A stretch of 64,000 bases of DNA, taken from Escherichia coli 042 (GTDB taxonomy: Bacteria > Pseudomonadota > Gammaproteobacteria > Enterobacterales > Enterobacteriaceae). The notes under the pieces were generated by a model that ran no database searches, was not told the DNA's origin, and saw nothing but the letters and a program-made list of their open reading frames with translations. Below, piece by piece: positions 5,864 to 5,929 of this stretch (position 1 is its first letter; each line of letters starts with the position of its first letter). Where the stretch lies: assembly GCF_000027125.1 (NCBI RefSeq), contig NC_017626.1; one strand, 5' to 3'. The position numbers and the translations under genes were made by a program.

Positions 5864-5878
5864 TGGTGTCAGGGCACC

Positions 5879-5910
5879 AAAAAAAACCGCCGAACATGTC
5901 GGCGGCTTTC
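5879..5910. terminator. Bidirectional rho-independent terminator between convergent yfbM and nuoN (strong for the nuo operon)
   Basis: Stem ccgccga/tcggcgg (5887..5905), loop acatg; A8 tract on plus strand gives a U8 tract after the hairpin on the minus-strand transcript. Confidence 0.8.
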
Positions 5911-5929
5911 TGACTTACAAACTGACAGC

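Follow-up and report, generated by a model that had tools for sequence, protein, structure and literature searches.

How does it come about that two genes which flank a three-gene block in Escherichia coli K-12 lie side by side in other E. coli chromosomes? In the DNA considered here, a 64,000-nucleotide stretch from E. coli 042 (hereafter the window), yfbM and nuoN are separated by just 66 bp, whereas in K-12 (strain BW25113) the order is yfbM, yfbN (minus strand), yfbO (plus strand), yfbP (plus strand), nuoN. A preliminary description of the window, which started from this K-12 order and gave it correctly, had suggested that yfbNOP is a strain-variable islet and that the window carries an empty site rather than a deletion scar. 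No account of a presence/absence polymorphism between yfbM and nuoN was found in the literature. As set out below, the junction in the window is not an anomaly; it represents the prevailing state of a presence/absence difference that is old and ordinary, at a strain-variable site of an already recognizable, ordinary type. The question then becomes which state came first, and how the alleles have been exchanged.

The yfbM-nuoN spacer and the nuo terminator

The left core flank of the junction is yfbM (5360..5863, plus strand, with its TGA stop at 5861-5863). Its 167-aa product matches Pfam PF08974 (DUF1877; E=1.2e-35), and the homologue in the closest genome, Ecol_316, is annotated under the name yfbM. 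The right core flank is nuoN (5930..7387, minus strand, 485 aa), the last gene of the nuo operon (nuoA-N), which spans window positions 5930-20954 according to the ORF list and the Ecol_316 annotation. The two genes converge on the 66-bp spacer (5864..5929), the unoccupied allele of the accessory-gene site. The spacer begins T-GGTGTCAGGGC-ACC-A8-CCGCCGA-ACATG-TCGGCGG-CTTTCT. Within it, the segment of about 11 bp (5865..5875) that follows the first T is present in empty alleles only. The A8 tract (5879..5886) directly precedes a hairpin (5887..5905) and the CTTTCT directly follows it; the hairpin itself consists of CCGCCGA (5887-5893), the loop ACATG (5894-5898) and TCGGCGG (5899-5905), giving a 7-bp GC-rich stem with six G-C pairs and a 5-nt loop. 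The sequence and the ORF list thus bear out the adjacency, the spacer length and the hairpin position that had been described.

On the minus strand, which is the sense of nuoN, the RNA folds with -28.2 kcal/mol (z=-4.4), and the GC-rich stem-loop is followed immediately by U8, the transcript of the A8 tract. This arrangement is that of a predicted intrinsic terminator of the nuo operon. On the plus strand (-20.6 kcal/mol, z=-2.65) the hairpin is kept, followed by the tail CUUUCU (4 U in 6), and the same hairpin may act as a weaker putative terminator for yfbM. The terminator had been called bidirectional; this fits the nuoN direction with its U8 tract, but toward yfbM the hairpin has only the CUUUCU tail. 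A simple consensus terminator scan did not flag the 5887-5905 hairpin. Given the strong fold with U8 this is probably a false negative, which we infer from the fold to arise because the A-tract lengthens the stem by pairing with the T/U-tract. An Rfam search over 5700-6100 returned no RNA family at a meaningful score. An outer inverted repeat, TGTCAG/CTGACA (5867-5872 and 5922-5927), also pairs in the fold; it is regarded as fortuitous because neither E. albertii nor E. whittamii conserves it. Elsewhere in the operon, the minus strand carries a nuoG RNA motif (Rfam RF01748, 50 bits) at 16057-16099, in the interval from nuoF to nuoG.

The hairpin is kept beside nuoN in every E. coli-type allele examined. 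It is present in the K-12, UID, PapRG and MOD1-like alleles described below, as well as in E. albertii and E. whittamii. E. fergusonii-type alleles, which carry yfbN and a further gene labelled X, have a shorter-loop variant with the same stem, in which the terminator is fully symmetric (A7-stem-T7), and in Superficieibacter the loop varies while the stem is conserved. In E. coli D2 (locus 8858-10368) the IS3-family element ISEcB1 lies inside the hairpin loop, splitting the two halves of the stem; CATG is found on both sides of the element, as expected for a short target duplication.

Empty and occupied junctions in E. coli

In a set of 5,426 complete E. coli genomes, yfbM and nuoN fall within one contiguous match in 4,286 (79%), including O157:H7, O111:H8, O145 and Nissle 1917. 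DNA similar to the K-12 block is present in about 1,015 of the 5,426 (~19%), so the proposed strain variability of yfbNOP holds. The match to the K-12 block is at least 99% identical in 985 of these 1,015, many of which are K-12 laboratory derivatives, and only 60-90% identical in about 27 genomes; alleles bearing gene X occur in 14 genomes. Secondary IS events are seen in a few strains, with IS5 in Res13-Lact-PEB14-36 and IS1 in L6-21 and E3 (IS-associated deletions). The window as a whole is ~99% identical to Ecol_316, and over 5000-6500 the two are contiguous and 100% identical; the other complete genomes among the full-coverage matches listed, out of 4,286, are also contiguous over this interval, at 94.7-97.6% identity.

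The window differs from Ecol_316 at other places. A perfect 157-bp tandem duplication (2.0 copies, 100%) at 40317-40634 covers the hisP start and the hisM stop and is missing from Ecol_316; the ORFs of hisP (39617-40390) and hisM (40555-41271) are intact, and the duplication could be a real recent event or an assembly artefact. The gene for an ElaD/SseL-family deubiquitinase (1088-2257) has a TTA-to-TGA change at 2255-2257, with loss of the last 18 residues relative to Ecol_316. This gene is itself variable in Escherichia: it is absent from UID2309220013, a MOD1-like strain and E. albertii, and in E. fergusonii and Superficieibacter a CheW/response-regulator gene takes its position. A REP325-type repeat, naRNA4 (Rfam RF02564, 77-83 bits), is present in four tandem copies on the minus strand between cvpA and dedD (47018-47361).

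Structure of the occupied alleles

The yfbNOP block of K-12 measures 2.6 kb and has a GC content of 39.7%, versus 52% for the window. Across the cassettes GC content is 37-40%, versus 52% for the window and 56% for nuoN-nuoM, a base composition unlike that of the surrounding chromosome, as in accessory-gene hotspots. When the window is aligned with K-12, homology extends to the T after the yfbM stop and resumes at the last five A's before the hairpin; window bases ~5865-5878 are missing from the K-12 allele. It had been asked whether the hairpin flanks the block in K-12. K-12 has a single copy of it, next to nuoN, in which the U-tract has shrunk to U5; the hairpin is not duplicated around the block. 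Junction alignments place the left breakpoint of the cassettes between 5864 and 5865, and the right breakpoint at 5875/5876 in the X/N/O alleles and at ~5879-5881 in the K-12 allele. In the occupied alleles, then, a cassette of 1.5-2.6 kb replaces the 5865..5875 segment. All cassettes run from right after the yfbM stop to the terminator A-tract, and the X/N/O alleles end before (A)CCAT.

Counting from nuoN, the full order is the terminator, yfbP (opposite strand), yfbO (opposite strand), yfbN (nuoN direction), X (opposite strand) and yfbM, where X is our label for a protein of ~190 aa encoded next to yfbM. E. fergusonii and three E. coli have X and yfbN; the Escherichia sp. MOD1-EC7003 type has X, yfbN and yfbO; the PapRG-06-5 type has a fragment of X with yfbN and yfbO; the UID2309220013 type has a remnant of X with the same two genes. 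K-12 has the X remnant, yfbN, yfbO and yfbP, and Escherichia sp. E2748 has the X remnant, yfbN, yfbO and a gene for 409 aa. The window and most E. coli are empty. Variable content between conserved flanks, with at least six cassette configurations at one junction, is what characterizes an accessory hotspot. YfbP and the 409-aa protein of E2748 were considered as possible relatives and are unrelated, though they occupy one slot; the 409-aa protein has no Pfam match.

The configurations include a series in which X decays from an intact gene to a fragment and then to a remnant. The K-12 yfbN-yfbO-yfbP block is a partly decayed version of a larger cassette. In particular, the 270 bp that separate yfbN from yfbM in K-12 (BW25113 locus 6866-7142) are what is left of the 3' part of X, with the frame disrupted; they show 74.6% nucleotide identity to X over 287 bp, and their translation ends in DKKPVQFWDYFL before the stop. 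The remnant carries no annotation in the K-12 record, and X is intact in E. fergusonii and a few E. coli. The yfbN genes form two classes, with 76-82% identity between the classes and differences of up to ~23% between alleles, while the yfbO genes of the same strains are 92-99.5% identical. Judged by their sequences, the cassette alleles are deeply divergent and mosaic.

The cassette ends have no target-site duplication or inverted repeats above chance (222-294 of 300 shuffles reach the best score). A CACAAT/CACCAT direct repeat flanking the long alleles was considered as a target-site duplication or as deletion microhomology, and the shuffle test assigned it to chance. No transposase, integrase, recombinase or adjacent tRNA gene is present in any cassette allele examined. 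Neither the repeats nor the mobility genes of a mobile-element insertion are therefore found.

Products of the cassette genes

The only Pfam matches of X are to SMI1_KNR4 and SUKH_5; they are seen in five of six alleles, and all lie below threshold, the best score being 22.2 bits against a gathering cut-off of 25.4 and the best E-value 1.6e-4. NCBI annotates X as 'SMI1/KNR4 family protein'. X forms only five protein clusters, all from Escherichia where a source is named. A profile search of X against PDB sequences returned only noise, and an AlphaFold model from a 6-sequence alignment was unusable (pLDDT 35).

YfbN begins with UBA-like domains and ends in a helical domain. A dN/dS of 0.21-0.33 marks yfbN as a genuine, constrained gene. 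For the pair K-12 and E. fergusonii, dS is 0.82 in yfbN, compared with 0.16 in nuoN and 0.31 in yfbM. YfbP contains TPR repeats; within Escherichia yfbP is found only as the K-12-type sequence, although homologues elsewhere are widespread, the nearest outside Escherichia being in Leminorella and Superficieibacter. A scan with PADLOC defence models (E<=0.01) gave no match for YfbN, YfbO, YfbP or YfbM, the four proteins it covered (X lay outside the scan), and NCBIfam likewise returned nothing for these four. Loss of yfbO, and also of yfbL, made K-12 resistant to phage N4 (preprint 10.1101/2025.09.29.679331), and yfbN and yfbO scored as hits in a retron toxin/antitoxin screen (preprint 10.1101/2020.06.22.160242). 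A conflict-related role of the cassette is possible.

The junction in other species

A search of genome contigs with YfbM yielded four loci, with E. marmotae and E. ruysiae not sampled by name. Four E. albertii genomes and E. whittamii have empty alleles whose spacers are recognizably related, E. albertii being the most basal Escherichia species. Three Escherichia lineages other than E. coli, one of them E. fergusonii, have occupied alleles. Outside Escherichia, the closest relatives of YfbN (46-47% amino acid identity) are encoded directly downstream of nuoN in the same orientation; the genera concerned are Superficieibacter and, on one contig, Klebsiella. In Superficieibacter sp. HKU1 the YfbN relative lies beside a YfbP homologue that is 62% identical. 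The Klebsiella yfbN-like protein is found on 2 contigs, versus at least 1,000 contigs for the same NuoN sequence, and its gene has the appearance of an infrequent accessory gene, not of one kept by vertical descent. A more distant YfbN homologue (39% identity) ends a run of eleven small same-strand genes on a Logan contig (DRR532630, positions 1-7735), where most of the genes have no Pfam match and the context is very unlike the one adjacent to nuoN.

Origin of the empty allele

The junction is an old multi-allelic site. The spacer of the window, with ~15 nt before the predicted nuo intrinsic terminator, is the majority, unoccupied allele of an accessory-gene site, and the alternative alleles are low-GC cassettes, 1.5-2.6 kb long, that draw on as many as four genes (X, yfbN, yfbO and yfbP). 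The polymorphism is older than E. coli. The anatomy of the site, the census, the range of alleles and the states in other species are observed; how the alleles are exchanged, and which state is ancestral, we can only propose. The alleles, including the empty one, would be swapped by homologous recombination in the conserved flanks. The occupied state would be the older one, with the empty allele arising by an ancient clean deletion and later becoming the common form. We assign this origin, an old resident cassette followed by an ancient clean deletion, a probability of roughly 0.6.

The occupied state is placed first because yfbN adjoins nuoN in E. fergusonii, in Superficieibacter and on the Klebsiella contig. 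Against this polarity are the empty junctions of both E. albertii and E. whittamii, the low GC content of the cassettes, which is usually a sign of foreign origin, and the rarity of the yfbN-like gene in Klebsiella. In addition, the 11-bp segment of the empty allele has no clear counterpart in the occupied alleles, and therefore neither a pure insertion nor a pure deletion fits the junction exactly. The junction sequence alone cannot decide between ancient deletion and primitive emptiness; deletion is at least as likely, and slightly more likely.

Evidence for exchange comes from E. coli D2, in which a spacer of the empty type lies between yfbM and nuoN flanks that match K-12 at 99% identity. 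Alleles have therefore been exchanged by recombination very close to the junction. A recombinational swap, which we infer as the mechanism, is the only one consistent with the data. Nearby, yfbL and yfbM (4286-5863) are unusually divergent among E. coli. Between the window and K-12, dS is 0.18 for yfbM and 0.065 for nuoN, with a dN/dS of 0.03 for yfbM, and for yfbL the identity between strains is only 82-98%. It looks as if old haplotypes have been kept beside the variable site.

The principal alternative is that the site is primitive and was never occupied, that yfbNOP is a foreign islet inserted in the K-12 lineage, and that related cassettes elsewhere were gained independently or by recombination. 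We consider this a serious contender, at clearly less than even odds. It would explain why 79% of E. coli share an orthologous empty spacer with E. albertii and E. whittamii, and it also agrees with the cassette GC content of 37-40%, with the near clonality of the K-12-type allele (the 985 genomes at 99% identity or more), with the restriction of yfbP in Escherichia to that allele and its nearest kin in Leminorella and Superficieibacter, and with the scarcity of the yfbN-like gene in Klebsiella. What it fits poorly is the cassette itself, where mobility genes are missing and neither a target-site duplication nor inverted repeats rise above chance, and the use of one junction by all cassette alleles despite ~23% divergence in yfbN. 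Also against it are the decay series of X, the occupied junction of E. fergusonii and the corresponding locus of Superficieibacter, where yfbN and yfbP each have a homologue. The preliminary contrast between an empty site and a deletion scar accordingly survives in part: the window has no cassette remnant, and its type of spacer recurs in E. whittamii and E. albertii. The further notion of a never-occupied site that received a yfbNOP insertion is not supported in that form, given the lack of insertion signatures, the divergent mosaic alleles at a single junction, and the cassette or yfbN homologues beside nuoN in E. fergusonii, Superficieibacter and the Klebsiella contig.

Within the proposal of an old resident cassette and an ancient clean deletion, a more speculative and less probable idea is that the two states form a balanced polymorphism, long-lived and shared between species, in which selection would have kept a conflict-related cassette alongside its clean deletion allele from a time before Escherichia radiated. 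The cassette might then combine a SUKH-like orphan immunity gene, a fast-evolving UBA/DMP19-like YfbN, YfbO and YfbP. If the idea is true, presence or absence of the cassette would change susceptibility to phages or toxins, and the locus would be a compact case of ancient allele maintenance beside an essential respiratory operon.

That E. coli 042 or its close relatives lost yfbNOP recently is very improbable. IS-mediated losses do occur in this region, as in Res13-Lact-PEB14-36 (IS5) and in L6-21 and E3 (IS1), but the window has no IS and no cassette remnant at the junction, and the same allele is found in 4,286 genomes and two other species. The 11-bp segment of the window is absent from the K-12 allele, and the window therefore did not arise by a simple deletion from a K-12-type allele. 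Two observations exclude a recent deletion: some spacer bases of the window are missing from occupied alleles, and its allele recurs in other species. An assembly or sampling artefact, such as a collapsed or mis-joined contig hiding the block, found no supporting point and is scarcely credible, as positions 5000-6500 are contiguous with the complete Ecol_316 genome (100%) and with other complete genomes.

Implications

For the window itself there is little consequence, since its 66 bp are the ordinary end of the nuo operon. For annotation, K-12 represents the minority state at this locus, with an unannotated pseudogene remnant between yfbM and yfbN, and the locus can be described as a recombination-driven hotspot bounded by the nuo terminator. 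Since ~80% of E. coli are without yfbO and yfbN, phenotypes reported for these genes in K-12 screens cannot carry over to such strains.

Comparison with known systems

The hairpin resembles the intrinsic terminators of convergent genes in its 7-bp GC stem, 5-nt loop, U8 tract and partial two-way symmetry. It differs in the yfbM-direction tail CUUUCU found in the window, and two-way function is uncertain.

The occupied alleles invite comparison with SUKH / SMI1-KNR4 polyimmunity loci, which they resemble in the sub-threshold family matches of X, in their divergent alleles and in their varying gene content. Unlike such loci, they have no toxin gene nearby, their genes are in mixed orientations, and there is no PADLOC match (X lay outside the scan). 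Membership of X in this family is not established, as its matches fall below the curated threshold. YfbN can be set beside DMP19, a DNA-mimic protein of Neisseria (PDB 3WUR), with which it shares 12% identity and no Pfam-level sequence relationship.

A further parallel is with core-flanked hotspot islets. The hotspot concept is reportedly that of Oliveira, Touchon, Cury and Rocha (2017), and the K-12-specific 'K-islands' of K-12/O157:H7 comparisons are strain-specific islets. As in such islets, low-GC variable content lies between yfbM or yfbL and nuoN, several unrelated cargos are found in one slot without mobility genes, and recombination in the flanks appears to shuffle the alleles. In contrast, the yfbM-nuoN cassette is small (1-4 genes), and at least yfbN is found at the same position across genera. 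The yfbM-nuoN site looks more like an old resident polymorphism than like the product of repeated foreign insertion.
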